From Pseudovirgaria hyperparasitica (lineage: Eukaryota): 64,000 nucleotides of DNA. Of the stretch, positions 1 to 34,088 are shown piece after piece; the stretch's first letter is position 1, and each line of letters starts with the position of its first letter. The notes beneath the pieces are model-generated. The model did not search any database, was not told the DNA's origin, and worked only from the letters and a program-made list of their open reading frames with translations. The stretch lies in NCBI GenBank assembly GCA_010093815.1, contig ML996596.1, one strand, 5' to 3'. Position numbers and translations under genes: made by a program.

Positions 1-2466
1 AATCGAAACGATAAATTAACTCGAAATAATAATGTCTTCTATAACGATACTAAAGTCCGTTACTCTAGTAGGCTTACTTTAATTAGATACTCGTATAGAT
101 ACTACGCGATATTACTTTCTAAGTATTAGTAGAAGTATTAATAGTATTATTATAATATAGCTCTACGTTTCTCCGGTTCTTATATAAGGATAGCTTCTAT
201 TATCTTTAGATTTATAGTAACTATCTAAAGTCTATTATAAACCTTAAGGAAAGCTTTAAATTAGTTATTAGGGTATTCGAATATATAATTTAGTACTATT
301 CTTATTACTCTTATTTCTTTTATATTTATTTAATCTATTTATAGTATTAGTATAGCTATAGGGATCTAAGACCATTCGTACGTATCGTCGTCTTTTCTTA
401 GCTAATTTAAGTAAGTAGATTTAGCGGGAGTAGAAACTATAGATATTAGAGTAATAATAGTTTCTATATTTATAGTTATAGCGGCGCTTATAACGACGGT
501 AGCGGCCGTAGTACTTATAATAACGTTAATCTCTACGTTAGCTATAGTACTTATAATAACGTTAATATCTACGTCGGTTACGGCATTAGTTTCTACTAGT
601 AGTATAGTTTTAGTAGCGGCTTCTTCTATTTAGGAGTCTTCTATATTATAGAATTCGTTTACTAACTCTAAGTTATTAGTATTTATAAGCTTCGTAAATT
701 ACTACCTTTATTTCTTAAACTTATCTAAGACTACTTCTTCGTGTATAACTTTTATTAGATTATTATTTATATTAGTATCTAATTCTCTAACTTTAAGTAG
801 CTTAATATCTAAGCTCGATCTCTTATCGTCTAAGAGCTTCTAGACGTTTTATTCTAGAAGTTCCTTAAACTAATACTCTAGCGTAGGAATTCTAGAAACT
901 AGTATCTCTATCTAAATATTATTAAGTTTAGAATAGTAATTATAAGTACTAGCGGCCGCTACTTTATTAAAGAGCGTTTCGAAGGGTATTCTATTAGAAG
1001 CTTTATATAGTTTATCTTCTTTTATAGTAAGTAGATATTTAAAGCTATCTTAGATATATTACTAGTATCTTCTAATAATTTCTTCGATATCTTATATATC
1101 TACTTCTATAGTATACTCTATGGTTTTCGTTACGCTATTAGAATATTATAGGTTTATAATTATCTCTATAAATCTTTGTATCTAGCTAGTGATTCTTAGT
1201 ATTTATCTAATTAATTCTTTTCTAGATAAAGTATCTACTACGGGTGTAGTAGTTACTATAGGTGTAGCTATTACTACGGGCGTAGCTATTTCTACTATCG
1301 TAGCTATCTTCTACGTAGTAATCTTTTATACTTCTACTATAAACCTTTTTAGAGCCTCCCTTATAATATCTTTTATCTAAGCTTCTATCTCTTTCTTATA
1401 GGCTAAGATAAGTATATTTATTTCCGTCTCTTATTAACTAATAGCGTTTATAGTTAACGCGGTAGGAATTAAGGTAGATAAGGTTACGGGAATTAAGGTA
1501 GATTATAGCTCCGTTAGCTCTATTAGAGTAGATAGAAGTTCTAATAATATAGAAGCTACCTTAGATACTATTATTTTAGTAGTAATTAACTTTACCTTCT
1601 TTACTATTTTAGCTTTCTTTATAGTAGTAGCTAGTATAGCTTTTATAATAGAGAGTAGAACCTTAATTACCTCTATTACCTTTGTAACTAGAGTCTATAT
1701 TTCTTCTAGTATTCTTAATTTAATAACGCCTTTCGTTAGGTTTATTAGGACGTCTAAGGTAGATACTCTAGCCTTTAGTCTCTTAGGAATCTCTCTTACT
1801 AAAATAATTAGCTATATCTTATTAGTATTTATAAATCCTTTAATTATAAAAAAGTTATCTATTTTATTAAAACTAGGTAGCGAGCTTATAATAATAGTTT
1901 ATATAGAGATAGTCTACGTAGAGATTTCGGGTAGAGTTAAAGTATATCTACTAAGTAGATATTATAGTAGGAGTTTATTAATTTTTCTATTCTATGTAAT
2001 TCGGTCTTCGTGGGAACCGTCTTAAATAATTATTAGTATAGTTATCTAGTTATTCGTAGTACCGTAATTTAAAGAATCCGTAAACTATAGTATTTTCTTA
2101 TAGACTATAGTAAATTTCTATATAAGGTCTTTAAGAGAGACTATAGAGATTAGCTATATACGCGCTATATCTTCTATATATAGCGCGTGGACTTTCTTAA
2201 GTAGCTTTTCTTCTACTTCTTAACGCTAGTCGGCTATTATACTCTCTATTAGGCTCTATTTTCGAACTAAGTCTTAGAGTATAATCTTATTTAACGGTAT
2301 CTATAAGTGCACTTCACGGATATTTTTTATAATTCTAGTCTTATCTTCTAGAGAACTTAGATGGTAGATTAACTAGAACTAGTATCCGGACGATTATAGT
2401 ACTATTATATAGTTACTATTAAGACCTTTAAGGCGTTACGCGACGTACTAGAATCTTATATATCTA

Positions 2467-5400
2467 TAATAATAATAATAATAATATTATATAACTAGGT
2501 AGAGTAGTACTCTATAGGCCTATGCCTTCTCTAGTCTAAGCCACTATATAAGAAGAAACCCCATAGGGAAAAACTTCCTTATGTCTATAACTACATCTCG
2601 TTAAACCTCTATTTCGTCTTAAGTATATAGCCATAGGGTACGCCTATTAGCCTATAGCCTATATTACTATTATTTTACCCTTAGGTAGCACGTGTAGGTA
2701 CGGAGGTTATTAGTTAAGGGCTACCCTTAACTAATAATTAGGGTTCTCCCGGGGTTCTTCCGGTATATATTAGGTTACTACCAGCGTATACCGGGTCTCT
2801 TCTAGTATATATTTCCGGGTCTACTAGTACTAGAGAAGTAGTAGATATATAAGTATCTATTAGAAGACGTCTTTAGGGTACTTATTAAGCTATTATACGA
2901 CATCTAAAGTCTTTATAATATAGATAAGCTATTACCGTTATATATAGAGGTTAGGGTATATAGCTAGATAGTAGCGTATTATACCTCTCTAGCCGTACAC
3001 CTTATACTATAGGGAGGTGTCGGGAACGCCTCTCTTATAGATATAGTATAGGAGTCCTATAGCTGTTAGGCACGTGCCTACCAGTTGATTATACATGTGT
3101 GCAGTAGTCGTATATAAGTAGTGTACTCCACCCTTAAAGCAGTAGCTTCAAGATTCGGTCCTTTTAGTGTAGTTGGTTGGTGCGTAGAGCCCGCCTCCTT
3201 ATATAATCTTGAAGCTACTACGGGGTCACGGGTTCAACTCTCGGTCTAGTTAACCGTTATTGAATTTCGCACGATTTCGTTTAGCTTGCCACGTTACGTA
3301 TACTTTGTGCACGTGACGGATAACATGGTGGTAACGTTACTACGGTAAGTTAGCGTGTCTAGTACTAGAGGCGGCATTACGAGTATTGATTGGGTGTACA
3401 CATAATTCGTTTATACTAGGCCTATTATAGCTAGTTTATCTTTCGTGAGGTAGATGCCCACGACGTGTAAGGGCACGCGCCTTTAAAAAGGGGAGATATT
3501 GTTAGGCACGTGCCTGCCAGTTGATTATACATGTGTGTAGCAGTCGTATATAAGTAGTGTACTCTACCCTTGAAGCAGTAGCTTCAAGATTCTGTCCTTT
3601 TGGTGTAGTTGGTTAGTGCGTGGAGCCCGCCTCCTTACAATAGCGCCCGTTCGGGCTTGGATAAGTATAGATACTTAGGCTTTCGTTAGCCCTTTATATA
3701 TCTATTTACTTAGTTCCTTCTATGGCCCTCGAATCTACTCTAGGTATCTATTCTACTAGGAGGTCTAGTAGGTATAGAGTACCTCTTTCTACTTATCTTA
3801 AGTCTATAACCGTATATTTTTCACGAGTTCTTAAAGGCTCTATTAGTCTAGGAGAGCGTCCGGGTTATCTCGGACTTCTTATACTACTTAGCTAGAGTCG
3901 GCTTCTATTAAGCACCTATACCGTATTCGATTCCGGCCTATATATAGGAGTGCGTAGTAATATATACTAATTCATGCACGTAGCGCGGCGAAAGTATATT
4001 CTACGTTTCCTATGCGTTCCTATACTTATTATTTAGTAAAGTATACTACCCTCTATATCTAGTAGAAGTTATATATACTTATAACGTCTATCTCGCGTCG
4101 TAGTAGTACCGTGTTAGTAGCTTTATATACGCCTAATATAAGACGGAGTATACGGTTCTATATGGATTCGAGCTTTATTCGCCTAGTCTATATAAGGGCC
4201 GTGTACTAGTACTCGTGTCCGTACGTAAAGGCGGGTCGTGCTATAGATATATATAGCTAGCGTGCCTTATCCCGGGCGGTTCCCTACGTGGAGACTATAA
4301 TCCGTTATATAGTAGCTTCTACCCGGAGGGCCCTAGAGACGGCGTATACTACTTATAGTCCCTATTTAAGCTTACTATCTAGTATAACTCCGAGCGCGCG
4401 TATACTTTATACTAGTAGTTTATTAAATGCGTCGATTCGGGGGCGTTATTTGCCTTCCCTAGTTATCTATTTCCCTTAACGATTAATAAAGTGTATAAGC
4501 TAGTATTTCTCCGGGGCGAACTTTGCTCTATAGCGTTTTATCTACTAGAGGTACCTCTTATAGTTCTATTCTAGTCGTCTATACGTTCCGTTAGTATTAT
4601 TATTAATAGCTAGAAGATATATATTATCGGCGTATCCGACTACCTCTATATACTTTATTTCTTAAAGAAGGTCTACTATAAAGAAGAGGAATAGGATCGG
4701 AGAGATGGTACTCCCTTATAGGATGCCGTATACCGTCTCTTTATATTTACTCTAGTACCTAGGGATATATATCTAAGTTATTCTTTCTATAAGGAATAAC
4801 TATATAAAGCGTATAATCTATTCTAGTATTCGTCTTATCCGGAGGTTATAAATAAGTCTTATATGGTTTACCTTATTAAACGCTCCGGCTATATCGAGGG
4901 AGAGGAGTAATACTACCTATCCCTATTTCTATACGGCCTAGATAACTTTAATAATATATTAGATAGCTATTATTAGGGAGCTATCTATCTTTACCTTCTA
5001 GTTTAGAGGGAGAAGATTATATTCCTATACCGCGGTACTTATCTTCTTCGCTATTATAGCCTCTAGTATCTTACCTAGGTAGGAGAGAAGGGCGATTAGT
5101 CTCTATCCCTTTAGGGAGTTAGGGCTCTTTTCTAGTTTCGGGAGTATAATAGTATAGGCGACTCGGAAGCTCTAGGGGTGGTACCCCTATATAACGCATG
5201 CTTAGAATATACGAGTAATAAGTGGTAGAGTCGCTTTTATAGTACTTTTTAGATATTAATTTAGAATTCCATCTAGTCCGGGTACTTTATTATTTAGGAG
5301 TATCTTAATAATATTAAGTATATTCTCCTCCGTAACTTCTTCGGGGATATCTACCGCGTATAGATATTTAGCGCCGTAAACGTCTAATAGGTCTACTAGT

Positions 5401-8330
5401 TCCGGAAGAGGGAACATGGCCTCCCGTAGGGCCTTAGTTTTCTTAAGGCCCGTAGAGTATGTTCTCCCCTAATATATTAGAGGAGGTATAAGTAGCGGGG
5501 GTGTCGGAGTATCTACGCCCTTAGCCTATTTCGCCATGCGCCATAGCCCTATTATATATTATATCTATTAACTAGTAATTATACGCTACTATTTACGCCT
5601 TTTATTACGGAGGACTTTATTACGTTATTATATCGCTTCCTTCTATTCTTTCTACGACTCGGGTATTCTTATATAGTATACGCGTCTATATAGCCTTCGG
5701 GCGTCTTATCTACTTTCCCGTACTTAAGGAATCCCCTTTACTTCCGGGGGCCGGTATATTCGGTATAGTACGTATTTATTTCTTATATTCTAGTATGTTT
5801 ATAGGAGTATCTATATGGCCTGGTCTATGGCTAGGTCGTTAGATATATTAACTATAGAGGGATCTAGAATTACCGATTCTAGGTCCTTCAGGTACTTTTT
5901 CTAGTCGGTATCCTTCTATATCTATTATCCCTATTATTTATTTGGGGTATACACGTTTATTATGGTTTCCATGTATTTATGGTCGGAATCCGTCTATACC
6001 TAGCCTAGGCGGTAGTATTAGATCCGGTAACTAATATACTCCGTAGCGAAGGTAAGGTTAAGCATAGACCCGTCTTCGTCCTATTTATATTTTTTCTATA
6101 TAACTTATTCTATAGGTATAAGTAGGTATAGGAAGTCGTGGTAGCGGGTGCGTAGTTCTCTTACTCTAAGTTCTTCCCTAACTACGGCTAGGCCTCTCTA
6201 CTATTAGTAGTAGAGGTTAAAGTCTCCTAGAAGGATGTATTACCCTAGTTCCGTAGTACCCTTAAGTATCTCGTCTAGTATAAGTACACGTTATTAGTTA
6301 TATATGTTATATATATATAGGGGGCCTATATCTATTTATAGGTGTAGTATTATTCTAAGGTTATCGCGCTCGGTATACGACTATAATAAGAGTAGTATTA
6401 ACCTATGAATATAGAAGAGGACTCGTCTTTCTAGTCCTAGAGGGTATATAGTATAGTATCCGGGGTGTATGGTTAGTTTACTCGTCTAGTAGTGTTTATA
6501 GGGTTCCTAGATGGCGAGTATTATAGCCCTAGTCTCTTCGAGGAGCGTCGCCTAGTTCTCTCTTTTATATTATATATTTACCTATATAATTTAGAGTATA
6601 TTCTAGTCCCTTATTAGGTACTAGGGAGTATATATATCTATATACTTATTCCTTAGAGGCGCGACTATCCTCGCGCGGTAGCGGCTTTAACTCTATCTTT
6701 TAGTCGTTCTATCGTCTTTAGGATAGTCTACTATCCTACCTAACTATCTTCTAGAGGGGAGGTTAGAGGTATTATAAAGGAAGGGCTCGTAGTAGATATT
6801 ATATTCTATAACTATCTCGCGCCTCTCGCTTTTATCGTATAAATATATTCTATAATCTATTTACGTTTTATATACGTTAACGACTATAACGGGTATTTCC
6901 CGTTGTAGTTTAAATACTATACTATATCCCTATTTCTTAGTCCGTCTCCTCGCGGTTTATAAGGGTACTTCTAGGTAGTATAGTCTCTACGGTACTATCC
7001 GCACTTAGTCTTCTATAAGTACCTTTATATAGTATGTCTATACCCTTAATAGTTAAAGTACTATATTATTATCTATACTCTATTCTATGGCTCGGCTATA
7101 AGGAGCTCTCCTTCTATTAGGAATCCCTTCTATATAATATATTATACGAGGGCGGGGTCTCGGAGCTCTATAATTATAGTAGAGTGTTTTTTCGCCGTCG
7201 TCTTAATCGCCTATAGGTTCTTCTACCACGCTTTCACGATCTTAATCCCTAGGTATTTTCGCGTATTAGATTATTCTATACGCGTAATATTCTCCGCTCC
7301 GATAGCCTATCCCCGCACGGGTACTACATATACTATAATCGGGTATATAGCTACTCTAATAGACGCGCTAGGGAAGATACTACCTATTACGTTCGGATCT
7401 CGCGAGATGTTTTACTATATAGTATTTATTATAGTAGTAAGTACTACCCTATCTAGCGTAACTTTAGTAGCCATAACGCTTAACTATATTTCTTTCTATT
7501 CGTTAATCTTATTTATAATTTCCTTTAGAGATATCTATTAGACCTACGCTAGCGTGTCCTTATCCTAGATCACGATACGTATACTATATACTCTATCTAT
7601 AGTTCTAGTAGTTCTTAGTACGGTAGCTCCGGGTATTACTATAATCTAAGCCTATGTGTTAGGGCGCTTACCTTAGAATAGCTCTTTCTAGATTCTCCGT
7701 AGGCTAGCTTCTATTCGGTTAAGTCTACTACTAGGTTCCTCTTATAGCGACTTCCTTTCTTCCTCTATAATTCCTCTTAGATTCTGGATAAGATCCCGGA
7801 ATATATAAAGGAGGGTCTTCTTTCCCTTCTCGGCGTCCCTCTCTATATATATTACCTAGTATTTAATTTTATCTAGGAGGGTCTCCCCTCTCGGGGTCCC
7901 CTCGGTCTAGGTTATCTATAGCGCTTCGCACCCTTAGTTAGTTCCTATATTTTAGATAGGTGTCTAGCTATCTATATTAATGTCGCTATATAGCCGTTTC
8001 TACCGTACTAGTAGGGGCATATCCGGCGTATACCGGGGTATTATAATACCTAAGGCCGCCATGGTTATTAGTTAAGGGTAGCCCTTAACTAATAAAAGGG
8101 GGTCGGCGTGTTAGTATTTATTAGATGTGGTCTATGCTTATGTTATTAAAGAGTCTTCGAGTATATATATATAGTATCTCTACACGTTAGTATTATCGCG
8201 TATTATACGCTATACGTACGCACGTGTATCGGAGGTTATTATACTCGGTATACTCTATCGTTTAATGTATGTAAATCGCTGTTTTACCCCGAATTAACTA
8301 GTTTGGTCCGTTAGGGTATGAGAAGTTTTT
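2467..8330 (-). mobile_element. Tad1-clade LINE (copy 1), full length, RIP-inactivated, carrying a TRIM insertion
   Basis: (TAA)n tail at ~2467-2486. ORF1 ATG at 8062(-) with CCHC knuckle relics at ~6900-7070. ORF2 has an APE endonuclease (GDFNLH relic ~6205-6240) and RT (VGYADN = YADD at ~4620-4645). The 5' end matches the other LINE copies. Confidence 0.93.
3064..3639 (+). mobile_element. Miniature non-autonomous LTR retrotransposon (TRIM-like), 576 bp
   Basis: 140-bp direct LTRs at 3064-3203 and 3500-3639 (TG...CA, first copy RIP'd to TA). 5-bp TSD ATAGC at 3059-3063 and 3640-3644. PPT AAAAAGGGGAGA at 3485-3496. The empty site is visible in LINE-2 at ~26154. Confidence 0.95.
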
Positions 8331-8671
8331 TAGAGAAGATATATAAGAGATTAGTAGATATTTTTATTGGTAATAGGTCGGTAACCTACTAGGCGATAAT
8401 ATTAGGTAGCGGGATAATAACTAGCTAGTAGACACGATAAAGGTTTAGGCGTAGACTAATATAGTATTTTTATAGACGCGTGATACTTACGCGTTATTAT
8501 TAATAATTTTAAGCGAGCGTATATAGGAATTAAGGGGCTAAGAGCCGGGTAGAAGTCGGGGGTTAGTAGGTATATATCGGGCTTTCGACGGGCTTACACC
8601 TAACTTCTTCTAGTATACGCCTAGAATATCCGCCGTATACCGTATCATTACTATCTACTAATAATTATACT

Positions 8672-11600
8672 ATGGTATTTTTCCTTTATAGTAACTACAC
8701 CTCGAGATACTACGGGCCGTAGTCTCCTACTAATACTATAGTAGAAAGATTAGTAGTATATACCATATAATCCGTAGGTACTATATCTCGGAACCGTGTA
8801 GATAAGCACGGCTTACCGCATCGCTATTATTATTATAACTATTAGGCCCGTGGCTACCACTATCGACCGGGTCACAGCGCGGCTTTAGTACTCGTAGTTA
8901 TATTAGTCGATGGAACTCTTTAGTTCGCTCTATTAGTGTTTAGCCGTCGAGCGTTAATTAGAAGTCCGAGCCTATAGAATTAGGTACTTCTACTACTAAT
9001 ATTACCCTATATAAAGATACTACTATTTTCCCTAATCCTATTTCGGACCTAGAATCTATAGACGGCGTTACTAGTGGCCATGGTACCGATTTAGTATGTT
9101 AGTCTAATATATATAGTAGAAATGCTATGTCCATGGCGACAAGGGCGTCTAGTACTATATATTTAATAAAAACGTTCGAAGAGGAGAGTAGTATATATAT
9201 TATAGTAGACTAGAGTAGACGTGATAATCCGTCCGACGTAAGTATATATAGTCTAGATTTATAGTAGTAACTAATTTAGTAGGCCCGATTCGGTTAATTC
9301 GATAGTAAGTTTATAGAGCGCCTTATAATATAGACGAATCGGTTCGGTATTTCGAATGTAGTATATAATGAATTAACTACTATCCTTAAATAGACTTCCG
9401 CTATACCCCCCGACCTTTTTATACTAAAATCTAATATCGTACGTAAGTAGTTATTATACTACCCTAAAGGGATACCGCACGAAAGTTAGTAGCGTAGCTA
9501 CGATACATTCGGCACTACTATAGTCGAATACTAGTATAGGGATCCGCTTACGTTAGTGGAATTCCTCCTTAGGTACCGACCGTTCACTAGTAAGCTTATG
9601 TTTAAGCCGGTACGATAATTTACTAGTTTAGGCGACCGGGTATATAGTAAAGCCTATATAGTAGATGGTTAGTAGGATATATACGCTGCTATTCCGGATG
9701 GTACCGTCGTCGTCCCTATTGTTTTATCTTTAGATAAGACGAACCTTACTAACCATGGTAGTAATAGAGTAGCATGGCTAGTCTACCTATCTATTTATAA
9801 TCTACCACTAAACGTCCGCTTATCTAGGAGTCTACTATTATTTCTACTACTTACTCTATTACTAGTAGTTAAGCTAGAAACGGTAGCGAATCGCTTTATA
9901 TTCCATTAGATTATAAGTAAAGTTCTAGCCCGTATGTCCGCCCATGATAGAGTCGTTAACTATACTAATTATTATATAGCGTTATAGGCTATATAGAGTA
10001 CTAGAGTATTAGTATTATATACCGATGGTGGCTTACGTAAGTACTATCCGCGTTTAGCTTTATATATTATAGATTTTCCGGAGTAGGTGCTTGTTATAGG
10101 TGTATCCCATCGGTATATATGTCTAATATATATAGTCCCTAGTAATAGACGATAGTATCTACGAGAAGCTATTACTAGTATATAGAAGTTCCGTATATAC
10201 TCGTCGTTATAGGAATAGGTTTACCGTATACGTCGCGAGTTAATAACTAATAGCCATGGTAGCGAGTATACTAGTAGTAAGACAGATAATAGGATAAGTA
10301 TACCTAGTGTCTTATCGTTTTCGTCGACGTCTTTCGCGCTAGTAGCATAGGGCTATTATATTCGCTAATCGGTTAAGAGTCGGTATTCTAGTGGGTGGAT
10401 AGAGCCATTGGATAATTTCGCCTAGTTACTTACTAGAGTTAATATACACCGCGCGGTCGCTCCGGACATTCTACATTAACTATATAAGGGTATATTAGAA
10501 TATATATTTAATTAGATAGTCTCGCATGTTATTAATTAAGAGCGTATAGGACATAAGTTAAAGGGTGTATTTACTAGTATACCCCCTATAGAACGAGTAA
10601 AGAAGGCGATCGATAAGCGATTCGCGTCTATTAGGGCATTTGGTCGTCATAACCTACTTATGTATATAACTTTAGTAATATAATGGACGGGGGCGATATT
10701 TAAGCGTATACTAGTAGTGTTTATAGTCGCGTTTAAACCGCTCCTATGTTATAATCGATACTTTCTAAGCGTAGTGCAGGCGGTTATTAATATATACATG
10801 TTAGCGGCGTACTATACGTATAATACGTAGATACTAGCATACTTAGAAGAGGCTATATTACGCTTAGACGACCTAAAATACTAGTTTATACCATATTATA
10901 GAGATAAATCGGAGGATAATCATTTTAACTTTCCGAAGTTCCATGCATTATCGCACCTAGTTAATACTATTAAACACTATGGTTCGTTATATCTAATATC
11001 GGTAGAGCTACTAGAGCGATCTTATATTATAGTAAAGGAATTATATCGAGGTTTAAATAAGAGGGAGACGTTTCTATAGTAGATGCTAGTAGTAGATATA
11101 CGCACGACGAATACTAAAATCTCTAGTAGTATAGAGGTGGCGGCTAGTACTAGTATATTAGTAGCCCCTAGCCTAGAGTAGCTCGATAATACACGTAAGC
11201 TAGTCGGCTAGCGGCGTATTCTAAAGGAGCCACGCCGGAGTAAATATACACTCTACGTCTTATAGAGCCATAGACTATCTACGTCCTACTAGACTACCGT
11301 TAGCGACCTCCACGATATATATAGTAGTAGTTTTATATTACTCGATACGGTTACACCCTTTATACACAACTATCGTAATCGGCTTATTAGGGATAATATA
11401 TCGAAAGGTACAAATATTAAACGTATTAAAAAGGACCCTTCGTAGGCACGGGTCCTTTCTATCTATATATACGAGACCATGTACATACCGATACGACTAG
11501 ATAGAGATATATCTATAGAGGCCTTCGACCTGATTCGGGTAAGGTATATCTATAACTAGTAAAAGAGTAGTAAGGCTAGGGAGGATTATATAATAGTATA

Positions 11601-12033
11601 GAAGTTTAATGAGGGTAGTAACCACCTTAACGGGAAGCGGGTTAGTAAAGTCTATATATTTCTAGAGATATACGATACGGAGAGCATTAACGTAACTAGT
11701 AGTATAGCGGCGCGATTCCTAGGTGCGTTAGTTAAACTACTTAATAACTCGGGTAGAGGTAATATCAACACTATTAGTAGCCTTATACTATTATATATAG
11801 CGGGTTAAAGGTCTAGTAATAAGACTCGTACGATGGATAGGTTCCGTGTCTACGAGCTAGAGTATATCCTACGCCCTATATAGATTATATTACGTTAGTT
11901 AGTTACGGATGGTTTATTCTAGTTAAATACATATAGTAATTAGGGGATCTATAATAAGGTATATAACCTAGACTTCTAGGCTATAAATAGATAAAACGTG
12001 ACTATAGCGTTAAAACACGGGCGCGTATCGTAA
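8672..12033 (+). pseudogene. Plavaka-family transposase with C-terminal BAH-like region, spliced, RIP-inactivated
   Basis: Motifs in order: RDPL..VEFLL (9538), IPDGTVVVPIVLSLDKTNLT...AWLVYLSIYNL (9691-9806), YPRLA.YI.DFPE(Q) (10045-10086), PDILH(Q)LYKG (10462), HFNFPKFHALSH (10921). Introns GTAAGT..CTAAT..TAG at ~9238-9282 and GTATGT..CTAAT..TAG at ~9932-9979. The start position is approximate. Confidence 0.9.
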
Positions 12034-12099
12034 GTCTATCGCTATCTACCGCCGCCTACCGTAGTATACCGGTATATACTAGTATATAGCGGAAGTTAT

Positions 12100-13300: not shown

Positions 13301-13479
13301 ATGTAGATGGTATTACTAGAGTAGGGCTATCGCCCGGTAAACTTGACGTTATATGTAGAGTATTATGTATTTAACGTCGTTATTTCACGTGCTCTATGTT
13401 AGTACGGGATCGGATACCGGCCATATGTTTCCCCGCCTCTATTAAATTAACGAGTTATTACTAATAACTATATAGACTA

Positions 13480-20193: not shown

Positions 20194-20280
20194 TAATGCT
20201 ACTAGAGCTAATGCTACTAGAGCTAATGCTACTAGAACTAATACTACTAGAACTAATACTACTAGAGCTAATACTACTAA
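20194..20280 (+). repeat. 15-bp coding repeat (aatgctactagagct, ~6 copies) in the helicase tail
   Basis: Visible tandem units downstream of the zinc knuckles. Confidence 0.85.
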
Positions 20281-20759
20281 CGAAGTAACTACTAGCGGCT
20301 AGGATAATAGAGACTACAAGGATACCGACTAAGACGGCGGTTTTACGATATATAAAGATATAGAAGTTAATTAGTAATAGTATACGATTAGACTCACGTG
20401 TTAGGGCTACTTAGTCACGGCTTCTTAGTAAGTATACCTCTATATCTATTTTAGATATAGTCATGATATCCTACTAGATAGATAGTTTAGCTCTATTAAA
20501 GACCTATTAAGGGTATTTCCATCACGTCTACTCTAGTATAGACGCGCTATTAGATAATACGGCGCCACTAGACACGTTAACTAGTACCTACCGATTAAGA
20601 AATAAATACGATTCTATATCTACCGCGAGCCCCGGCCTAATAACGTAGGCTTCCTTTAGTTATCCCCTTTATACTTTTAAAACTACTTCTAGCCTTTATA
20701 TTAGGAGATATTACTATCTAAAGAGAAAATATAAAAAAACATACGCCCTAATTAAAGCC

Positions 20760-22605: not shown

Positions 22606-23344
22606 GACGGCTTCTATCTACTATATATCGGTATATACCCGATTCTACTAGCTATACAACTATAGTGTACATGTTTAGTTAAGACGTTACAATACCGGTA
22701 TAAGCCGGCGTCTACCTAGTTTACGTTAGGATACGCCCGGTCCTACTAGCTACATTATTACTACAACTATAATTGTATAAGATCCACTCTAATAATTAAA
22801 TATTTACTTATATACTTCACTTCCTCCGCACTTATCGAAATTATATTATAATTACTAAACGCGGTAACTTAACTCCTACCGCCTAAATCTAGTTTTTATA
22901 TCTTATCGCCATTAACGCCGTCTTACTACCTATAGCCTAAGTTATATATAGGAATAGATAGGTATAACGAGAGTTACGACTATCCTAGTTTAACTACCGG
23001 CCATAGAATGGCTAACCGTAACACGTATATACGACGTACAGAGGCCTTAAGTATTAGCGCCCTTCTACCTTATATCTAGTACCTCCGAGGCCTATATCTA
23101 ATATCTAAAATAAGTTATAATATATATAGGGCTACTATTATTAAGATAGTAAGTAAAGAAGTGGTAATAGAGCTTAAAACTAGTAGTATAGACACTACTA
23201 TACTCTATAGAATAGTTAAGGAAACCGTTACTAGAGAATTTAATTGGCACATCGCGGCTATAAATAGTAAGTTAGTACCGACGGTTACGACCATAGATAT
23301 AATAGAGGCTAAACTAGACATAGATACTATAGGCATAGGTACGT

Positions 23345-25245
23345 AGATATAGTTACCGCTAGAATATAAGGAGAAAGATAATATAGAAGATACTAAAATG
23401 GAAGACGACGTAGCTAGTATACTTAGATACATATATATATACACGGTTCTAGATACTAACATTAGAGTAGTATCGAAGATACGTGCGGCTATAACCACCG
23501 ACATAGATAATCTATCTATAAATGTTATCGTGTCTAGCGAAGCTCATCCACGCGTAAACATACTAGCTATAGAGATATAGTTATAGTTGCCGCCGGAATA
23601 TACGGAGAAAGAGAACGTGGAAGATACTAAAATAGAAGATAACGCAGCTAGTATACTTAGATACATATATATATATATAGTCCTAGATGCTAATATTAGA
23701 GTAGTATCGAAGACAGGTACGGCTATAACTACTAATATAGATAATCCACCCACGAATATCGTCGTGCCTAGCGAAGCTTATCTACGCGTAAATACACCAG
23801 CCATAGAGATATAGTTATAGTTACTACTAGAATATACGGAGAAAGAGAACGTGGAAGATACTAAAATGGAAGACGACGCAGCTAGTATACTTAGACATAT
23901 ATATATATATATATAGTCCTAGATACTAACATTAGAGTAGTATTAAAGATAGGTACGGCTATAANNNNNNNNNNNNNNNNNNNNNNNNNNNNNNNNNNNN
24001 NNNNNNNNNNNNNNNNNNNNNNNNNNNNNNNNNNNNNNNNNNNNNNNNNNNNNNNNNNNNNNNNNNNNNNNNNNNNNNNNNNNNNNNNNNNNNNNNNNNN
24101 NNNNNNNNNNNNNNNNNNNNNNNNNNNNNNNNNNNNNNNNNNNNNNNNNNNNNNNNNNNNNNNNNNNNNNNNNNNNNNNNNNNNNNNNNTACTTAGACAT
24201 ATATATATATATATATAGTCCTAGATACTAACATTAGAGTAGTATTAAAGATAGGTACGGCTATAACTACCGATATAGATAATCCATCTACGAATATCGT
24301 CGTGCCTAGCGAAGCTTATCCACGCGTAAACACACTAGCCATAGAGATATAGTTATAGTTACCGCCGGAACATACGGAGAAAGAGAACGTGGAAGATACT
24401 AAAATGGAAGACGACGTAGCTAGTATACTTAGATATATATATATATATATAGTTCTAGATGCTAATATTAGAGTAGTATCGAAGATAGGTACGGCTATAA
24501 CTACTAATATAGATAATCTATCTATGAATATCGTCGTGCCTAGCGAAGCTTATCTACGCGTAAACATACTAGCTATAGAGATATAGTTATAGTTACCACC
24601 GGAATATACGGAGAAAGAGAATATAGAAGATACTAAAATGGAAGACGACGTAGCTAGTATACTTAGACACATATATATATATATGGTCCTAGATACTAAC
24701 ATTAGAGTAGTATCGAAGACAGGTGCGGCTATAACCACCGATATAGATAATCCACCTACGAATATCGTCGTGTCTAGCGAAGCTTATCTACGCGTAAACA
24801 TACTAGCTATAGAGATATAGTTATAGTTACCGCCGGAACATACGGAGAAAGAGAACGTGGAAGATACTAAAATGGAAGACGACGTAGCTAGTATACTTAG
24901 ACACATATATATATACATAGTCCTAGATACTAACATTAGAGTAGTATCGAAGATAGGTGCGGCTATAACCACTAATATAGATAATCCACCTACGAATGTT
25001 ATCGTGTCTAGCGAAGCTTATCTACGCGTAAACATACTAGCTATAGAGATATAGTTATAGTTACTATTAGAATATACGGAGAAAGAGAACGTAGAAGATA
25101 CTAAAATGGAAGACGACGTAGCTAGTATACTTAGATACATATATATATATATGGTCCTAGATGCTAATATTAGAGTAGTATCGAAGATAGATGCGCCTAT
25201 AATTACCGATATAGATAATTCCCCTACGAATGCCGTCGTGCCTCT
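23345..25245 (+). repeat. 234-bp coding tandem repeat, about 7 copies (last one partial)
   Basis: ATGGAAGACGAC recurs at 23398, 24404, 24638, 24872 and 25106 (period 234 after the gap), with variant copies near 23632 and 23866. Confidence 0.95.
23965..24189. other. Assembly gap
   Basis: Run of N. Confidence 1.
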
Positions 25246-25563
25246 AGATACTAGCGAGACTTATCTACGGCTACTAGAAATAAAGAGGACACTCTCGAAT
25301 AACATAGTAAACCTAGTCGATTCTCCGAAACGCCTAAAACTAGAATATATTATACTACTAGATATCGACCGGTAGACATGTAAAAACCAGGAACTATTCG
25401 GGTTAGTAGATAATTTATATAGTAGATATATATCGGATAGTACATTAGCGAACGGCCTTAACTTTAAAATCCTTTCTATAGACGACGACTCTAACGGAGA
25501 TAAAGCAAAGCTAGATATAGAGGACTTAATTCCGGTAGATAACGATGTTAGTACGAAACTATA

Positions 25564-28500
25564 ATAATAATAATAATAATATTATATAACTAGGTAGAGT
25601 AGTACTCTATAGGCCTATACCTCCTCTAGTCTAAGCCACTATATAAGAAGAAACCCCATAGGGAAAAACTTCCTTATATCTATAACTACATCTCGTTAAA
25701 CCTCTATTTTATCTTAAGTATATAGCTATAGGGTACGCCTATTAGCCTATAGCCTATATTACTATTATTTTACCCTTAGGTAGCACGTGTAGGTGCGGAG
25801 GTTATTAGTTAAGGGCTGCCCTTAACTAATAATCGGGGTTCTCCCGGGGTTCTTCCGGTATATATCGGGTTACTACCGGCGTATACCGGGTCTCTTCCGG
25901 CATATATTTCCGGGTCCACTAGTACTAGAGAAGTAGTAGATGTATAAGTATCTATCGGGAGACGTCCTTAGGGTACTTATTAAGCTATTATATAATATCT
26001 AAAGTCTTTATAACGTGGATAAGCCATTACCGTTATATATAGAGGTTAGGGTATATAGCTAGATAGTGGCGTATTATACCTCTCCGGCCGCACGCCTTAT
26101 ACTATAGAGATATATCGGGGACGCCTCTCTTATAGAGGTAGTATAGGAGTTCTATAGCGCCCGTTCGGGCTTAGATAAGTATAGATACTTAGGCTTTCGT
26201 TAGCCCTTTATATATCTATTTACTTAGTTCCTTCTATAGCCCTCGAATCTACTCTAGATACCTATTCTACTAGGAGGTCTAGTGGGCACGGAGTGCCTCT
26301 TTCTACTTATCTTAAGTCTACGACCGTATATTTTTTATAAGTTCTTAAAGGCTCTACCGGTCTAGAAGAGCGTCCGGGTTATCTCGGACTTCTTATACTA
26401 CTTAGCTAGAGTTAGCTTCTATTAAGCACCTATACCGTATTCGATTCCGGCCTATATATAGGAGTACGCGGTAATATATACTAATTCGTACACGTAGCGC
26501 GGCGAAAGTATATTCTACGTTTTCTATGCGTTCCTATACTTATTATTTAGTAAAGTATACCACCCTCTATATCTAGTAGAAGTTATATATACTTATGACG
26601 TCTATCTCGCGTCGTAGTAGTACCGTATTAGTAGCTTTATATACGCCTAATATGAGACGGAGTATACGGTTCTATATAGATTCGAGCTTCATTCGCCTAG
26701 TCTATATAAGGGCCGTATACTAGCACTCGTGTCCGTACGTAAAGGCGGGTCGTGCTATAGATATATATAGCTAGCGTGCCTTATCCTAGGCGGTTCCCTA
26801 CGTGGAGACTATAATCCGTTATATAGCGGCTTCTATCTAGAGGGCCCTAGAGACGGTATATACCACTTATAGTCCCCATTTAAGCTTGCTATCTAGTATA
26901 ACTCCGAGCGCGCGTATGCTTTATACTAGTGGTTTATTAAATACGTCGATTCGGGGGCGTCGTTCGCCTTCCCTAGTTACCTATTTCCCTTAACGATTAA
27001 TAAAGTATATAAGCTAGTATTTCTCCGGGGCGAACTTTACTCCGTAGCGTTTTACCTACTAGAGGCACCTCTCGTGGTTCTATTCTAGTCTTCTATACGT
27101 TCGGTTAGTATTATTATTAATGGCTAGGAGGTATATATTATCGGCGTATCCGACTACCTCTATATACTTTATTCCTTAAAGAAGGTCTACCGTAAAGAAG
27201 AGGAATAGAATCGGAGAGATAGTACTCCCTTATAGGATGCCGCATACCGTCTCTTTATATTCGCTCTAGTACCTAGGGATATATATCTAAGTTATTCTTC
27301 CTATAAGAAATAACTATATAAAGCGTATAATCCATTCTAGTATTCGTCTTATCCGGAGGTTATAAATAAGTCTTATATAGTTTACCTTATTAAACGCTCC
27401 GGCCATATCGAGGGAGAGGAGCGATACTACCCGTCCCTACTTCTATACGGCCTAGACGACTTTAATAATATGTTAGATAGCTATTATTAGGGAGCTATCT
27501 ACCTTTACCTTCTAGTTCGGAGGGAGGAGATTATGTTCCTATACCGCGGTACTTATCTTCTTCGCTATTATAGCCTCTAGTATCTTACCTAGGTAGGAGA
27601 GAAGGGCGATTAGTCTCTATCCCTTTAGGGAGTTAGGGCTCTTTTCTAGTTTCGGGAGTATAATAGTATAGGCGACTCGGAAGCACTAGGGGTGGTATCC
27701 CTACGTGACGCATGCTTAGAATATACGAGTAATAAGCGGTAGGGTCGCCTTTATAGTTCTTTTTAGGTATTAATTTAGAATTCCATCTGGTCCGGGTGCT
27801 TTATCATTTAGGAGTATCTTAATAATATTAAGTATATCCTCCTCCGTAACTTCTTCGGGGATATCTACCGTATATAGGTATTCGGCGTCGTAAACGTCTA
27901 ATAGGTCTACTAGTTCCGGGAGAGGGAACATGGCCTCCCGTAGGGCCTTAGTTTTCTTAAGACTTATAGAGTATGTTCTCCCCTAATATATTAGGGGAGG
28001 CATAAGTGGTGGGGGTGTCGGAGTATCTACGCCCTTAGCCTATTTCGCCATGCGCTATAGCCCTATTACGTGTCGTGTCTATTAACTAGTAATTATACGC
28101 TACTGTTTACGCCTTTCGTTACGGAGGACTTTATCGCGTTATCGTATCGCTTCCTTCTATTCTTCCTACGACTCGGGTATTCTTATATAGTGTACGCGTC
28201 TATATAGCCTTCGGGCGTCTTATCTACTTTCCCGTACTTAAGGAATCCCCTTTACTTCCGGGGGCTAGTATATTTAGTATAGTACGTGTTTATTTCTCGT
28301 ATTCTAGTATGTTTATAGGAGTATCTATACGGCCTAGTCTATGGCTAGGTTATTAGATATATCGACTATAGAGGGATCTAAGATCGCCGATTCTAGGTCC
28401 TTCAGGTACTTTTCCTAGTTAGTATCCTTCTATATCTATCGTCCCCGTTGTTCATTCGGGGTATATACGTTTATTACGGTTTCCATGTATTCGTGGTCGG

Positions 28501-30849
28501 AATCCGTCTATACCTAGCCTAGGCGGTAGTATTAGATCTAGTAACTAATATACTCCGTGGCGAAGGTAAGGTTAAGCGTGGACCCGTCTTCGTCCTATTT
28601 ATATTTTTTTTATATAACTTATTCTATAGGTGTAAGTAGGTATAGAAAGTCGTGGTAGCGGGTGCGTAGTTCCCTTACTCTAAGTTCTTCCCTAACTACG
28701 GCTAGGCCTCTCTACTATTAGTAGTAGAGGTTAAAGTCTCCTAGAAGGATATATTACCCTGGTTCCGTAGTACCCTCGAGCATCTCGTCTAGTGTAAGTA
28801 TACGTTATTAGTTATATATATTATATATATATAGGGGGCCTATATCTATTTATAGGTGTAGTGTTATCCTAAGGTTATCGCGCTCGGTATACGACCATAA
28901 TAAGAGTAGTATTAATCTATAAATATGGAAGAGGACTCGTCTTTCTAGTCCTAGAGGGTGTATAGTATAGTATCCGGGGTGTGTGGTTAGTTTACTCGTC
29001 TAGTAGTGTTTATAGAGTTCCTAGATGGCGAGTATTATGGCCCCGGTCTCTTCGAGGAGCGTCGCCTAGTTCTCTCTTTTATATTATACGTTTACCTATA
29101 TAATTCGGAGTATATTCTAGTCCCTTATTAGGTACTAGAGAGTATATATACCTACATGCTTATTCCTCGGAGGCGCGACTGTCCTCGCGCGGTAGCGGCT
29201 TTAACTATGCCTTTTAGTCGTCCCATCGTCTTTAGAATAATCTACTATCCCGCCTAACTACCTTCCGGAGGGGAGGTTAGGGGTATTATAAAGGAAGGGC
29301 CCGAGGTAGGTGTTATATTCTATAACTATCTCGCGCCTCTCGCTTTTATCGTGCGAATATATTCTATAATCTATTTGCGTTTTATGTACGTTAACGACCA
29401 CGACGGGTGTTTCCCGTTATAGTTTAAACACTATACTATGTCCCTATTTCTTAGCCCTTCTCCTCGCGGTTTATAAGGGCACTCCTAGGTAGCGTGGTCC
29501 CCACGGCACTATCCGCACTTGGTCTTCTATAAGTACCTTTATATAGTATGTCCATACCCTTAGTAGTTAAAGTACTATGTTATTACCTATGCCCTATCCC
29601 ATAGCTCGGCCATAAGAAGCTCTCCTTCTACTAGGAATCCCTCCTATATAATATGTTATACGAGGGCGGGGTCTCGGAGCTCTATAATTATAGTAGAGTG
29701 TTTTTTCGCCGTCGTCTTAATCGCCTATAGGTTCTTCTACCACGCTTTCACGATCTTAATCCCTAGGTATTTTCGCGTGTTAGATTATTCTATACGCGTA
29801 ATATCCTCCGCTCCGATAGCCTATCCCCGTATAGATACTAAGTATACCTATATCGGGTATGTGGCCGCCCTAATAGAGGCGCCTAGAAAGATACTACTAA
29901 TCGCGTTCGGATCGCGCGAGATAGTCTACTACGCGATGTTCGTTATCGTGGTAAGTACTACTCCTCCTAGCGTGAGTTTAGCGACAATAACATTTAACTA
30001 TATTCCCTTTTATTTATTAATCTTACTTACTATATCCTTTGGGGATGCTCGCTAGACCTATACTAGGGTGTCCTTATCCTAGATTATAACGTGTATACTA
30101 TACGCCGCGTCGCTAGTCCGGGGGGCCCGTGGTATAGCTTCTAGTATTACTACTATTTATACCTATATACTAGGGCGCTTACCTTAAGTAAGTTCCTCCT
30201 AGATTCTACGTAGGCTAGCCTCCATTTAGTTAAGCCTACCCTCCGGTCCTCCTAGTTATATCTTCTTCTTCTCCTCTATAATTCCCCTTAGGTTCCGGAT
30301 AAGGTTCTAGAATATATATAGAAGGGTCTTCTAGCCCTCTCCGGCTTCCTTCTCTACACGTGCTACCTAGTAGTTAATGCGATCTAGGAGGGTTTCCCCT
30401 CTCAGGGTCCCCTTTATTCCGCCTATCTATAGTAGCGTGCGCCTTTAGGTGTGTTCTACGTTTTAGATAGGTATATAGCTACCCTTAGTAATATCACTAT
30501 ATGGCCTTTTCTATCGTACTAGTGGGGGTATATCTAGTATATACCGGGGTATGTCGGTGCCTAAGGCCGCCATATTTATTAGTTAAGGGCTACCCTTAAC
30601 TAATAAAAGGGGGTCGGCGTATTAGCGTTCTAGTAGCGTGGTCCGTGCCTCTATCTCCGTGAGGATTTTAAGAGGGTGTGTATATATCTTTATACGGCGA
30701 TAACGTCTTGGTTTCAACGCTGCACGTACGTGCGTATAGTAGTAGTTAGTGTACTCGGTATACTCTATCGATTAAGGTGTGTATCTCGCTATATTACCTC
30801 GAATGGACCAAGTTAGCCTCTTAGGGATGTAAAAGAAGTTTTACTTAAA
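25564..30849 (-). mobile_element. Tad1-clade LINE (copy 2), full length, RIP-inactivated
   Basis: 17-bp TSD GTTAGTACGAAACTATA at 25547-25563 and 30850-30866. (TAA)n tail, ORF1 ATG at 30573(-), near-identity to copy 1 over ORF2. Confidence 0.96.
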
Positions 30850-33529
30850 GTTAGTACGAAACTATAGGAAGCGTAAGTTATACTAAGAAGTAAGTAGGAA
30901 TATATACTACCATACTAATATACCTATAGAATATTCGCCGTTAATAACTCCGATAAAGTAGTCTAAGCTATCTCTTATTATATAGAAGAGATACGGTTAC
31001 TTACTATAAGTATATTTAGGCTTACGCTAGACGACCTAATAAAGGAGTTCGGCTATACACCCACTCTATATCTAGCCTTTAGTATAAGTAGGTTATATAG
31101 GCTATAGGCCGGCTAGTTACTCGCGGTAGTTACTATGTTTAAGTAGCGGGCGGGTCCGTGGAAGTGCTAGATCTTAGTAGATAGTCTAGGGCTAGGGAAG
31201 ATAATCGTGCTTATAACGTTCATCCACCTTACGTTTTATTAGGACTTTCTACGCGATAATATAGAACTTAATCTAGGAAATTACCTATAACCGACTTAAG
31301 ACTCGGGTATAGATAGGAAGTGCCCGATATAATCTCTATATCCGATTAAATGTCCGTGTAGCTAGACCGATAATTTCGTCCATGTGCCCCGCCTTCGAGG
31401 ACCATTTATACTATACTATCTAAGGTCCCTTCTAATAGCGCATTGGCCGTAGCGCTTTAAATAGATATATAATGATACGGATAGTATGTTCACCGATTAA
31501 ATCGATAAACGGAACCCGATAAAGATAATAGTATAGCTAGCGTACTCGAAAACCCTTACCGACGCCCCTAGTATCCGATAATTCTCGCATATAGACCGAT
31601 AATACTTAGCTAAGAGATGCCTATACCCCGAATAGGAACACAGCGTCGATATTAGTAATACTACTAAATTCGAGACCGACGAGGAGTATATTATTAGAGC
31701 ATGGTCGATTCTAGTTAATAGGACCGCTACTACCGAATTTCCGTCGCGATACGCGAAGAACTATATAATCTATAGTACCGTCTAGAGTATAGAACCCTAA
31801 TATCTTAAATCTTTTAAGAGACGTATAGTTATAAGAGTAAAGAGGGCGAAATAATTTAGTACTAAAAACACTTAAACTCGCGAAGTGGCATTCCTCGGTA
31901 TATTAATAGTAAACGAGTTCTATTCCGTAAAGAACCCTAATATAAAACAGTATAAATATACGATATATAATACCCTTATATTTAGTATATAGATTAGTAT
32001 AACGCCCCTCTCGAATAGTCTAGTAGATATTCTAGCGGCTATCGAGGCAGGTACTCCGGATAAGTTACCCGACTACGTCGACGATAATACTACTAAAAGG
32101 GTATTCGAGAGCCTATAGAATAAAACTATAAGGAAGATTATTATAACGTGGTTAAATAAACTCCTTAGTTTAATAAAAGGTAAGCCGGCGGACACGATGG
32201 CCGCGATAGTCCGTAGGGCATTAGAAACTATAGAAGGTAAGCGCACACTACGTATGGTAGCCGATTAGTATTTACTATTTATCCTATAACGGGGACTACT
32301 AACTAAATAGTTTAACGGAGAGGCATGTCTATCCACGATATCAAAGCTAGTAGTAGAGTTTATATCCGTCCCGGCCATAGAACTAGAGAAGATAATTATA
32401 CGGTTATACGAGAATAGAGGTAGATAGTTTAATAATCTATAGTCTAACGGAACGCCGCGGGACTCGTAGATATAATCTACCGCCTAGAGTAAATCGAAAG
32501 GGGGTACCGGGTCCGGGCTTAACGCATACTACTATTAGGCTAGGCTAGCTACTACGTATATACTACTTATATACCTTACTAATAAAAAGATAGAAGATAA
32601 GTAAATTAATATTACGCTTACGCGTTGGAGGGATAGTAATAATAGTATACTAAGTAAGATAATTACTAATCCCGTACGCGAAGCGCTCCTATAGCTAGAT
32701 AAGACTATATAAAAGGAGATAGTATCGCTAGCTAATAAACACGCTTCGAAGGTAAACTAGATCCGTAACTTTATTAATAATAACGTTTATAATAAAAGTA
32801 CTAGACGTGCGCAACGAACATCCGCTAACCACCCGGAGAAAATCGTACTCGCATATACCGTACCGGTAAGCTTAATGTTCCTATACTTAGTAAGTGTTTA
32901 TACTACCTACTAGTAACGTAATTCACTAATATATATAGGTACTACGTCTATATACACAAGCGAAAATGTTAGTATATTTACCAGCCGGCCTAAGTACGTC
33001 CGAATTAAATAAGGTATATAGATTATTTAGGTCGACTAAGTCGGATTCTCCGTGTATTCTACTAGTATTAGCTTCGTAGGTCTACGAAGGATAAGACCTA
33101 ATAGTCGCCGGTTTTATAGTATTAGTAGACTAATGCTTACATAAGGAGACGTGGCCATAGACAAGCATAAGATATTATCACCATAGATAATATCAGCCTA
33201 TAGTATATACGTATACTTTGATTTTAGACTATTTAGAGGTTAAGGCTAGACTCGCCGCGTTAGATAAGGTAATCGAAAGCACGAGGACATAAGCCTTAGA
33301 CCTAGGAAAAGAAGATATAGCTACGGTAGAGATAGCCATACCTAACATACTAGTAATAGGCGTACGCTTTAATTCTATAGAGATATAGTAGTATAGAAGT
33401 AAGTAAGGTAGTTAGTTAATTAGCTTCTAAGAGACTAGATAGCATAGTAGTATAAATACGAACCGCTGTTTACTTATAATTATATATCTATATATATCTA
33501 TACGTGAAGAGAAATAAGATATTTATTCT

Positions 33530-34068
33530 ATACCGTTATATAGTAGGACGTTACTATATATGCTAGCATACAACGGAATATTCCGATATACGCCGGTATA
33601 TTATAGAATATTCCTAGATACTTAAAGTATAGTCGTAGTAAAAAGTAGTATTACTATTATATGCCGGTATATAGTAGAACGTTACTATATATGCCGGTAT
33701 ATAACGGGATCATGTTCCGACATACTATACGCCGCTAGTATATTATAGAATATTTCTAGATACTCGAAGTATAGTCGTAATATAAAGTAGTATCGCTATA
33801 CTATACCGGCATTTAGTAGGACGTTACTATATATACCGGCATATAACGGGATTAAACGTTTTCTTAACGTTCGATAGAATAATTCTAAAAGAACCGGGAC
33901 GGCTCTAGGAGAACTAGGACGACTCCGGGAGGACTAGGACGACTCTAGGAGGATTAGGATAACTCTAGAAGTACCGGGACGACTCTAGGAGGATTGGGAC
34001 AACTCTAGAAGTACCGGGACCCATTTGGGATAACTTTAGAAGTACCGGGAGACCTAGAAGCATTGGGA
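33530..34068. repeat. Subterminal repeat arrays: ~135-bp unit x3, then 20-bp unit (accgggacgactctaggagg) x~8
   Basis: acgttactatatat.c..g.ata.aacgg at ~33548, 33680 and 33820. 20-bp periodicity over 33885-34068. Confidence 0.85.
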
Positions 34069-34088
34069 GCGCCGTATCTTTCCTAATG

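Follow-up and report, generated by a model that had tools for sequence, protein, structure and literature searches.

A repeat-mutated block in Pseudovirgaria hyperparasitica as a candidate remnant of a large PlavakaB-type transposon with helicase and SNF2-like genes

Starships have a captain, a DUF3435 tyrosine recombinase, at one of their ends and are typically much larger than ~20 kb. Plavaka transposons belong to the CACTA-related CMCT clade (CACTA/EnSpm-Mirage-Chapaev-Transib), and the consensus sequences given for them in the relevant sections of Kojima (2025, PMC12730594) measure 6.5-25 kb. As described there, PlavakaB elements have 5'-CATCA..TGATG-3' termini and target-site duplications of 2-3 bp, and 12 of 19 PlavakaB 5' ends start with CATCAG followed by an A-rich run, as in CATCAGGAAAA (first 11 bases compared). 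The same account gives PlavakaB consensus lengths of ~22 kb (ScCi) and 24.8 kb (GyCo) and reports that some families carry TET/JBP genes. Enlarged elements are also described for the En/Spm (CACTA) families of Chondrus crispus, which span 16-20 kb with four to five open reading frames (ORFs; Kojima et al. 2013, as cited in PMC6431247). In Parastagonospora nodorum SN15, the unit X3X3R8 is described as nine copies affected by repeat-induced point mutation (RIP), with three Rad5/SNF2-like helicase genes, a Rad6-like gene and two unknown genes (Hane & Oliver 2010, PMC3017866); no mention of X3X3R8 was found in the later literature that was searched. Here we compare with these systems a block of RIP-mutated DNA that carries a Plavaka transposase, a helicase frame and a SNF2-like frame. 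It lies in a stretch of 64,000 nucleotides from the fungus Pseudovirgaria hyperparasitica (GenBank assembly GCA_010093815.1, contig ML996596.1), referred to below as the window.

The reading that we favor, though tentatively, is that ~8335-34088 is what remains of a large DDE transposon of PlavakaB type that RIP inactivated and that had moved as a single unit. Such an element would have been at least 20.4 kb long before the arrival of a long interspersed nuclear element (LINE-2), and it would have inserted into an older, RIP-saturated Gypsy retrotransposon. Its predicted order on the + strand is a Plavaka transposase, ~3.7 kb without genes, a superfamily 1B (SF1B) helicase, ~2.4 kb of unrecognized DNA, a frame that joins tandem repeats to SNF2-like motifs, subterminal arrays and a ...CCTGATG-type terminus. 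Judged by the published ScCi and GyCo consensus lengths, the block falls within the size range of the family. The positions of all features are collected in Table 1. Broken frames were translated with X at each stop before profile searches, and over the transposase, helicase and SNF2-like genes the domain scans were confined to sense-strand frames.

Table 1. Features of the block and the elements nested in or abutting it (window coordinates)
Feature	Position	Strand	Details
Block	8335..34088	+	contiguous, evenly RIP-mutated; left edge is the 5' end of LINE-1
LINE-1	2464..8334	-	on or replacing the left edge of the block
Plavaka (CACTA-related DDE) transposase frame	8701..12102	+	frame 1; fewest stops, many of them RIP-made
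34-bp tandem repeat	12490..12610	+	holds CCGGGTATATAACG twice; near-identical motif in the right-end arrays
18-bp tandem repeat	15873..16205	+	18.5 copies; (A/V)EPYV-stop hexapeptide repeat in the helicase frame
Upf1/Sen1-like SF1B helicase frame	16202..20200	+	frame 2; core ~18254-19762, AAA_12 19145-19735
Three zinc-knuckle-like motifs	19970..20146	+	C-X2-C-X3-G-H-X4-C, RIP-tolerant; in the helicase frame
N-terminal part of repeat-SNF2 frame	22600..25563	+	includes 234-bp (78-aa) tandem array, 23344-25269
LINE-2 with one target-site duplication copy	25564..30866	-	nested later insertion, outside the element proper
SNF2-like part of repeat-SNF2 frame	30867..33300	+	motifs I DSLGLGKI (31180), II NEFYSVKN (31912), III TPLSN (32002)
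Subterminal arrays	33524..34020	+	142-bp unit x1.8 (33524-33852); 20-bp unit x6 (33889-34020)
Candidate 3' terminus CTTTCCTAATG	34078..34088	+	PlavakaB ...TGATG-type end

The block, its transposase and its right end

The window is AT-rich (GC 0.19-0.42), and long open frames are nearly absent from it. Every measured segment carries the dinucleotide signature of RIP, with TpA/ApT at 1.44-2.01 and (CpA+TpG)/(ApC+GpT), hereafter the RIP index, at 0.05-0.37, which identifies the window as fungal repeat DNA. The usual RIP thresholds are ~0.89 for the first ratio and ~1.03 for the second. Values for the block lie on the RIP side of both (1.44-2.01 and 0.16-0.37), and the flanks have an index of 0.05-0.09.

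Within the block, RIP is even. The block measures 25,754 bp, or 20,451 bp once LINE-2 and one copy of its target-site duplication are subtracted. Its CpA+TpG density is 17-48 per kb at a GC content of 0.32-0.40, compared to 0-15 per kb and 0.24-0.33 at 34.2-52.2 kb. When the non-LINE DNA of 8336-34088 is divided into 10 segments, these show 27-45 CpA+TpG per kb, GC contents of 0.35-0.38 and RIP indices of 0.16-0.37; the density is 27-34 per kb outside the 234-bp array, 44.7 within it, and 19 in the 365-bp stretch ahead of the transposase frame. No 600-bp bin across 8336-34088 shows the RIP level of the old background. The right-flank segments have 8.1 CpA+TpG per kb, the low flank index holds on both sides of the block, and composition and RIP change sharply at ~34088. 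The contiguity and similar RIP level asserted in a preliminary description of this DNA were thus borne out for 8336-34088, where the CpA+TpG map contains no island of old background. Even RIP across 20 kb indicates that the entire block was repetitive DNA at the time of RIP, the helicase gene along with the rest.

The preliminary description had also put the contiguous block at ~23 kb and counted a divergent orfA at 1-2463 as part of it. This stretch resembles the right flank (GC 0.284, 6.9 CpA+TpG per kb, RIP index 0.07) and gave no Pfam match in the two frames scanned. Its saturated RIP signature places orfA outside the block, which comes to 20.45 kb when 1-2463 is dropped and LINE-2 is excised. 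LINE-1 has no recognizable target-site duplication that would tie 1-2463 to the block. The final ~470 bp before LINE-1 are slightly richer in CpA+TpG, with seven sites in ~370 bp, too few to decide. In the same stretch, 1438-2025 (+) is a frame of 195 codons free of stops, and the minus strand has a reading that looks like a coiled coil.

The proposed Plavaka transposase is present. Over profile positions 39-241 of 325, its frame scores 108.4 bits (E 5.6e-31) on PF18759, far above the gathering score of 26.3, and the best Pfam stretch corresponds to nt 9508-10125. RIP has converted many of its Cys and His codons. Word-indexed protein searches with the transposase and with the helicase returned no match, because RIP destroys the shared 5-residue words on which such searches depend.

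The right edge of the block resembles a PlavakaB terminus. At the RIP boundary, right behind the 142-bp and 20-bp arrays, comes the candidate 3' terminus CTTTCCTAATG, with a T-rich run ahead of it. Positions 34084-34088 read TAATG, which is TGATG with one RIP-type TpG-to-TpA change. When compared with the reverse complement of PlavakaB 5' ends such as CATCAGGAAAA, CTTTCCTAATG agrees at 9 of 11 positions, and one of the mismatches is RIP-type. The pattern CCT[GA]ATG occurs twice on the + strand of the 64 kb and not at all on the - strand. Both the subterminal arrays and the sharp boundary noted at first inspection were therefore recovered.

Immediately beyond the boundary lies a RIP-saturated Ty3/Gypsy element at 34089-38999 (-). 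It was recognized from its pol domains (RT_RNaseH, E 3.1e-5; Integrase_H2C2, E 0.024; SH3_Tf2-1, E 0.004) and from a chromodomain seen by eye near 34200-34350. The pol frame closes ~55-110 bp from 34088. This distance is too short for a full long terminal repeat (LTR), which argues that the block interrupts the Gypsy element and not the reverse; the Gypsy 3' LTR appears to have been cut off by the block. A Gypsy LTR pair was sought to locate the resumed half of the interrupted site, and none was detected.

Helicase and SNF2-like frames

The helicase frame matches AAA_12 over nearly the whole profile, from position 15 to 193 of 195, at E 8.3e-7 and 29.2 bits (cut-off 27), and AAA_11 gave no Pfam match in this frame at E<=0.01. 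An exhaustive phmmer search of 1.84 billion representatives found 21 matches at E<=1e-3, the best at 2.6e-8 and ~25% identity. Fourteen of the 21 were scanned for domains: AAA_11 and AAA_12 were found together in all 14, zf-CCHC in none and a ZNFX1 domain in one. The phmmer alignments to these AAA_11 + AAA_12 proteins cover residues 385-887 of the query. A Walker-A-like GYGGARKS was seen by eye in the frame, and the best solved structure is yeast Sen1, a weak match (E 0.48). The relatives fall into clusters of one to three members (20 clusters looked up), and those with names are hypothetical proteins of Aspergillus, Penicillium and Phyllosticta, which suggests Pezizomycotina as the source of the window.

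The knuckle spacing C-X2-C-X4-H-X4-C is obtained only when Tyr (TAY) is read as a RIP-converted Cys or His. The G-H position is conserved in all three knuckles, with Y in place of H in two of them. Together they account for three of the six RIP-tolerant CCHC matches in a six-frame translation of the 64 kb; the other three lie inside LINE-2, at 52.5-53.1 kb and on the minus strand at 33317-33358. No Pfam zf-CCHC match was found in the frames scanned around the helicase. With its AAA_12 match, its phmmer relatives and its three RIP-tolerant knuckles, the frame upholds the earlier proposal of a Upf1-like superfamily 1 (SF1) helicase, with CCHC knuckles as candidates, and the predicted protein would bear an N-terminal hexapeptide repeat and the three knuckles at its C-terminus. 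Downstream of the helicase, no credible domain was found in 20.3-22.9 kb, where each of the six frames was scanned in whole or in part; the sole match, NHase_beta_N (E 0.66), is far below its cut-off.

The repeat-SNF2 frame is now divided by LINE-2. This LINE is flanked by an exact 17-bp target-site duplication, GTTAGTACGAAACTATA, at 25547-25563 and 30850-30866, which indicates that the DNA on its two sides was formerly continuous. Upstream of LINE-2, frame 2 has 10 stops in 457 codons versus 46 and 65 in the other frames; downstream, the best frame has 50 stops in 811 codons versus 79 and 100. The most open frames on the two sides join in frame when LINE-2 is excised precisely at its target-site duplication, and thus the repeat array and the SNF2 motifs belong to one frame. 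The run of Ns at 23965-24189 breaks the register of the 234-bp array by 68 bp (offset 770 = 3 x 234 + 68). The length of the run is therefore untrue, and this explains an apparent frame shift.

The SNF2 motifs are defined as GxGKT (I), DEAHxxKN (II) and TGTPxQN (III). In six-frame translations of the 64 kb, RIP-tolerant forms of motifs I and II have a single match apiece, and motifs I-III lie in one frame and in the right order, with motif III 22 residues past motif II. The combination was found in 0 of 40 shuffles, a significance that is inflated by patterns written after the sequence had been viewed. Because the patterns are post hoc, we label the frame SNF2-like, not SNF2. The preliminary description had called it a repeat-SNF2 ATPase; a single frame that joins the 78-aa repeats to motifs I-III stands, but no hidden Markov model recognizes SNF2 in it. 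Among the profiles named in that description, Plavaka and AAA_12 gave matches, and AAA_11, zf-CCHC and SNF2 did not.

Transposase, helicase and SNF2-like frame all lie on the + strand in one uninterrupted block. An alternative to cargo is that the helicase and SNF2-like genes are host genes in a duplicated, RIP-mutated segment, with the Plavaka merely adjacent and the match at 34088 a coincidence. X3X3R8 of P. nodorum offers a precedent, since this RIP-affected unit is interpreted in its description as an endogenous gene cluster (PMC3017866). The helicase relatives are unremarkable hypothetical proteins of Pezizomycotina, and the + strand of the window contains 12 matches to the degenerate 3'-end pattern. 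However, the terminus match falls at a RIP and composition boundary directly after the arrays, for which a rough estimate from three pattern matches in 34 kb gives a chance of 1-3%. RIP-saturated repeats lie on both sides of the block, whose right side stops less than ~110 bp past the Gypsy pol stop, as an insertion would, and all three genes share a strand with the transposase. We consider a host-gene segment unlikely.

Candidate ends and neighboring repeats

Between the transposase and the helicase, no coding frame stands out by stop density in 12.6-15.3 kb, and six frames of 12.1-16.2 kb gave no credible Pfam match; the sole match is below cut-off and on a low-complexity repeat. The unknown ORFs that had been placed at 12.1-15.8 kb were consequently not recovered by either measure. 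The 34-bp tandem repeat in this region shares a motif with the right end: CCGG(G)YATATAACG (a 14/15-mer) occurs four times in the 64 kb, at 12550, 12596, 33694 and 33836, which loosely ties 12.55-12.60 kb and the right-end arrays to one sequence family. An 18-mer, CCGGTATATACTAGTATA, is present in direct orientation at 12069 and 14618 in this gene-less stretch.

Three internal positions were considered as ends and rejected. The first, a 3' terminus at 12448, is a 7-mer match only, and the 80 bp upstream of it are unlike the right end: equal or higher scores are reached by 263 of 1000 shuffles and by 61% of control windows. The second, at 12534, would be a 5' end but belongs to the 34-bp tandem repeat as a variant unit, and the other copies of this unit lack CATCAG. 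The third, a 5' terminus at 25443 (CATTAGCGAA), falls within the joined frame that runs from the repeats to the SNF2 motifs. About five matches to the degenerate 5'-terminus pattern are expected by chance in 34 kb, and these two were seen. In transition-tolerant alignments, no similarity among all candidate ends rose above shuffles (best z 2.7, with 3 of 200 shuffles equal or higher).

Several observations weigh against a single mobile unit. Neither a 5' terminus nor a target-site duplication of the element was found, and the left edge is occupied by LINE-1. The window holds no inverted copy of the right-end arrays, and self-comparison of the 64 kb revealed no second copy of any non-LINE part of the block. 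The LINEs, which are separate elements, have a RIP index of 0.19-0.27 and so do not differ from the block in RIP level. From its evenness the age of the DNA can be read, but not whether one element or several of the same age are present. A second CCTAATG at 12442-12448 lies ~350 bp past the transposase frame and is followed by 3 kb without coding signal, so that a transposase-only element ending at 12448 is possible. Nothing marks the ~25%-identical helicase relatives as transposon genes. Finally, the SNF2-like frame gave no SNF2_N or Helicase_C Pfam match at E<=0.01 or at E<=10, and no SNF2 match in PDB.

Some of these points suggest a composite locus, in which a transposase-only Plavaka ending at ~12.45 kb has beside it, or nested in it, one or more helicase/SNF2-like mobile units of the same age, the last of them a non-autonomous Plavaka relative ending at 34088. 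In addition to the second CCTAATG, this explanation draws on the 12.1-15.8 kb interval, which lacks coding signal and credible Pfam matches in six frames, on the return of the right-end-array motif at 12550 and 12596, and on the 5'-terminus-like strings at 12534 and 25443. The LINEs show that same-age nesting did happen at the locus. The candidate ends that such units require are nevertheless poor ones. The sequence before 12448 does not resemble the right end, 12534 belongs to a tandem unit whose sisters are without CATCAG, 25443 is internal to a joined frame, and two 5'-like strings are fewer than chance would supply. Moreover, no old-background DNA separates the supposed units. We regard a composite origin as somewhat unlikely, if well short of far-fetched.

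It is highly improbable that the block represents another class of giant element, Starship-like or unknown, with the Plavaka as a passenger and the mobilizing gene either outside the window or too degraded. The missing left end and the ~6 kb of block without recognizable content speak for it. However, the scans, which for the three genes covered the sense strand only, revealed no tyrosine recombinase or other mobilizing domain, the right end is Plavaka-like, and ~20 kb is below the size of Starships.

If the block was a single PlavakaB-type transposon, its transposase would have cut at both ends and moved the whole unit, which would have been present in at least two copies when RIP struck. The 5' end would have been deleted or pushed aside by LINE-1. 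As passenger or accessory genes, the helicase and the SNF2-like ATPase would, by analogy with the TET/JBP genes of Plavaka and other fungal DNA transposons, most plausibly influence how the element is silenced through chromatin or RNA. From the original proposal of one mobile DDE element with cargo, the one-strand block, the even RIP, the PlavakaB-type edge and the interrupted Gypsy element remain, the left 2.4 kb has been excluded, and the SNF2 gene is supported at the level of motifs.

The window contains four copies of one LINE, identified by self-comparison at 2464-8329 (-), 25559-30842 (-), 54655-59928 (+) and 61774-64000 (+). The first two, LINE-1 and LINE-2, are 88-93% identical to each other, and the other two are 75-93% identical to them. 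LINE-1 and LINE-2 occupy the places given in the preliminary description. LINE-1 is full length at both ends; LINE-2 contains an RVT_1 match (E 1.5e-15) and has a (TAA)n-like tail. The copies at 54655-59928 and 61774-64000 are oriented opposite to these two, and the last one leaves the window. A 576-bp insert at 3064-3639 lies inside LINE-1 and is not present in LINE-2. It is essentially free of RIP (~100 CpA+TpG per kb, GC 0.44), has ~140-bp direct repeats at both ends (TGTTAGG...CCTTACA) and is flanked by a 5-bp target-site duplication, ATAGC. The insert looks like a TRIM-like miniature terminal-repeat retroelement that arrived after RIP or escaped it. An origin from a tRNA or short interspersed nuclear element was rejected, as ARAGORN detected no tRNA in it.

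Farther to the right, RIP is milder at 52500-53100 than in the surroundings (21-25 versus ~5 CpA+TpG per kb). A well-preserved CCHC knuckle, CSYCKKLGHLENTY, is found there at 52871-52912 (+), perhaps from a retroelement Gag, and tandem arrays with units of 15-57 bp at 53484-53769 adjoin this stretch. Besides the run of Ns in the 234-bp array, the window has N runs at 53821-54360 and 60285-60869.

Comparison with described elements

If the block is one unit, fungal cut-and-paste transposons would recruit ATP-driven RNA/DNA helicases and chromatin remodelers, beyond the DNA-demethylating TET/JBP enzymes, and the set of genes with which transposons manage host silencing would be wider. The RIP-affected helicase clusters reported since 2010 from plant-pathogenic ascomycetes would also gain a transposon explanation. 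Otherwise, the locus amounts to an ordinary set of nested dead repeats.

Compared with Starships, the block is likewise large DNA with candidate cargo, probably in Pezizomycotina, although Starships are mobile and the block is a candidate. It differs in its end, which looks like that of a DDE transposon, and no DUF3435 domain was found in the frames scanned, in a sequence whose left end is missing and in which RIP lowers sensitivity. The C. crispus En/Spm families resemble the block as CACTA-clade DDE transposons enlarged past the usual one to two ORFs. Their host, by contrast, is a red alga and their transposase, as described, is not of the Plavaka type.

Like the block as we read it, X3X3R8 is described as a RIP-affected, multi-gene unit with SNF2-type helicase genes and unknown ORFs, present in multiple copies in an ascomycete. 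In contrast to the block, it has a Rad6-like E2 gene, its helicases are SNF2/Rad5-like and not SF1, and its description, which is the sole basis of this comparison, reports no transposase in the parts that concern the unit. The multi-copy helicase clusters of Dothideomycetes, of which X3X3R8 is an example, may be the same sort of element, overlooked as transposons.

The described elements closest to the block are PlavakaB. As far as these are described in the relevant sections of Kojima (2025, PMC12730594), both have a PF18759 transposase and a ...TGATG-type 3' end after a T-rich run, and the short subterminal repeats of PlavakaB 5' ends have a counterpart in the subterminal arrays at the right end of the block. 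PlavakaB consensus sequences extend to ~22-25 kb, and some are multi-gene elements with TET/JBP cargo that is thought to be counter-silencing. The block, unlike these, carries a candidate SF1 helicase and SNF2-like cargo, with no TET/JBP domain in the frames scanned, and a strongly RIP-active fungal host, probably of Pezizomycotina, sets it apart from published PlavakaB. The terms 'SNF2' and 'ATPase' do not occur in Kojima (2025, PMC12730594), where the single 'helicase' concerns Helitrons, and no published link of Plavaka to cargo, helicase or SNF2 genes was found. The suggestion that this architecture is undescribed therefore holds for the link between helicase or SNF2 genes and Plavaka, but not for size and multi-gene content, since PlavakaB elements of 22-25 kb, enlarged CACTA families and X3X3R8 have already been published. 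With less confidence than we attach to the single unit itself, we propose that the block is a PlavakaB-type transposon of a RIP-active ascomycete that carried a zinc-knuckle Upf1/Sen1-like helicase and a repeat-bearing SNF2-type remodeler, possibly as a second accessory or 'anti-silencing' cargo beside TET/JBP. Helicase and SNF2-like cargo would be new for a Plavaka element; its size and its multi-gene content would place it among elements already known.

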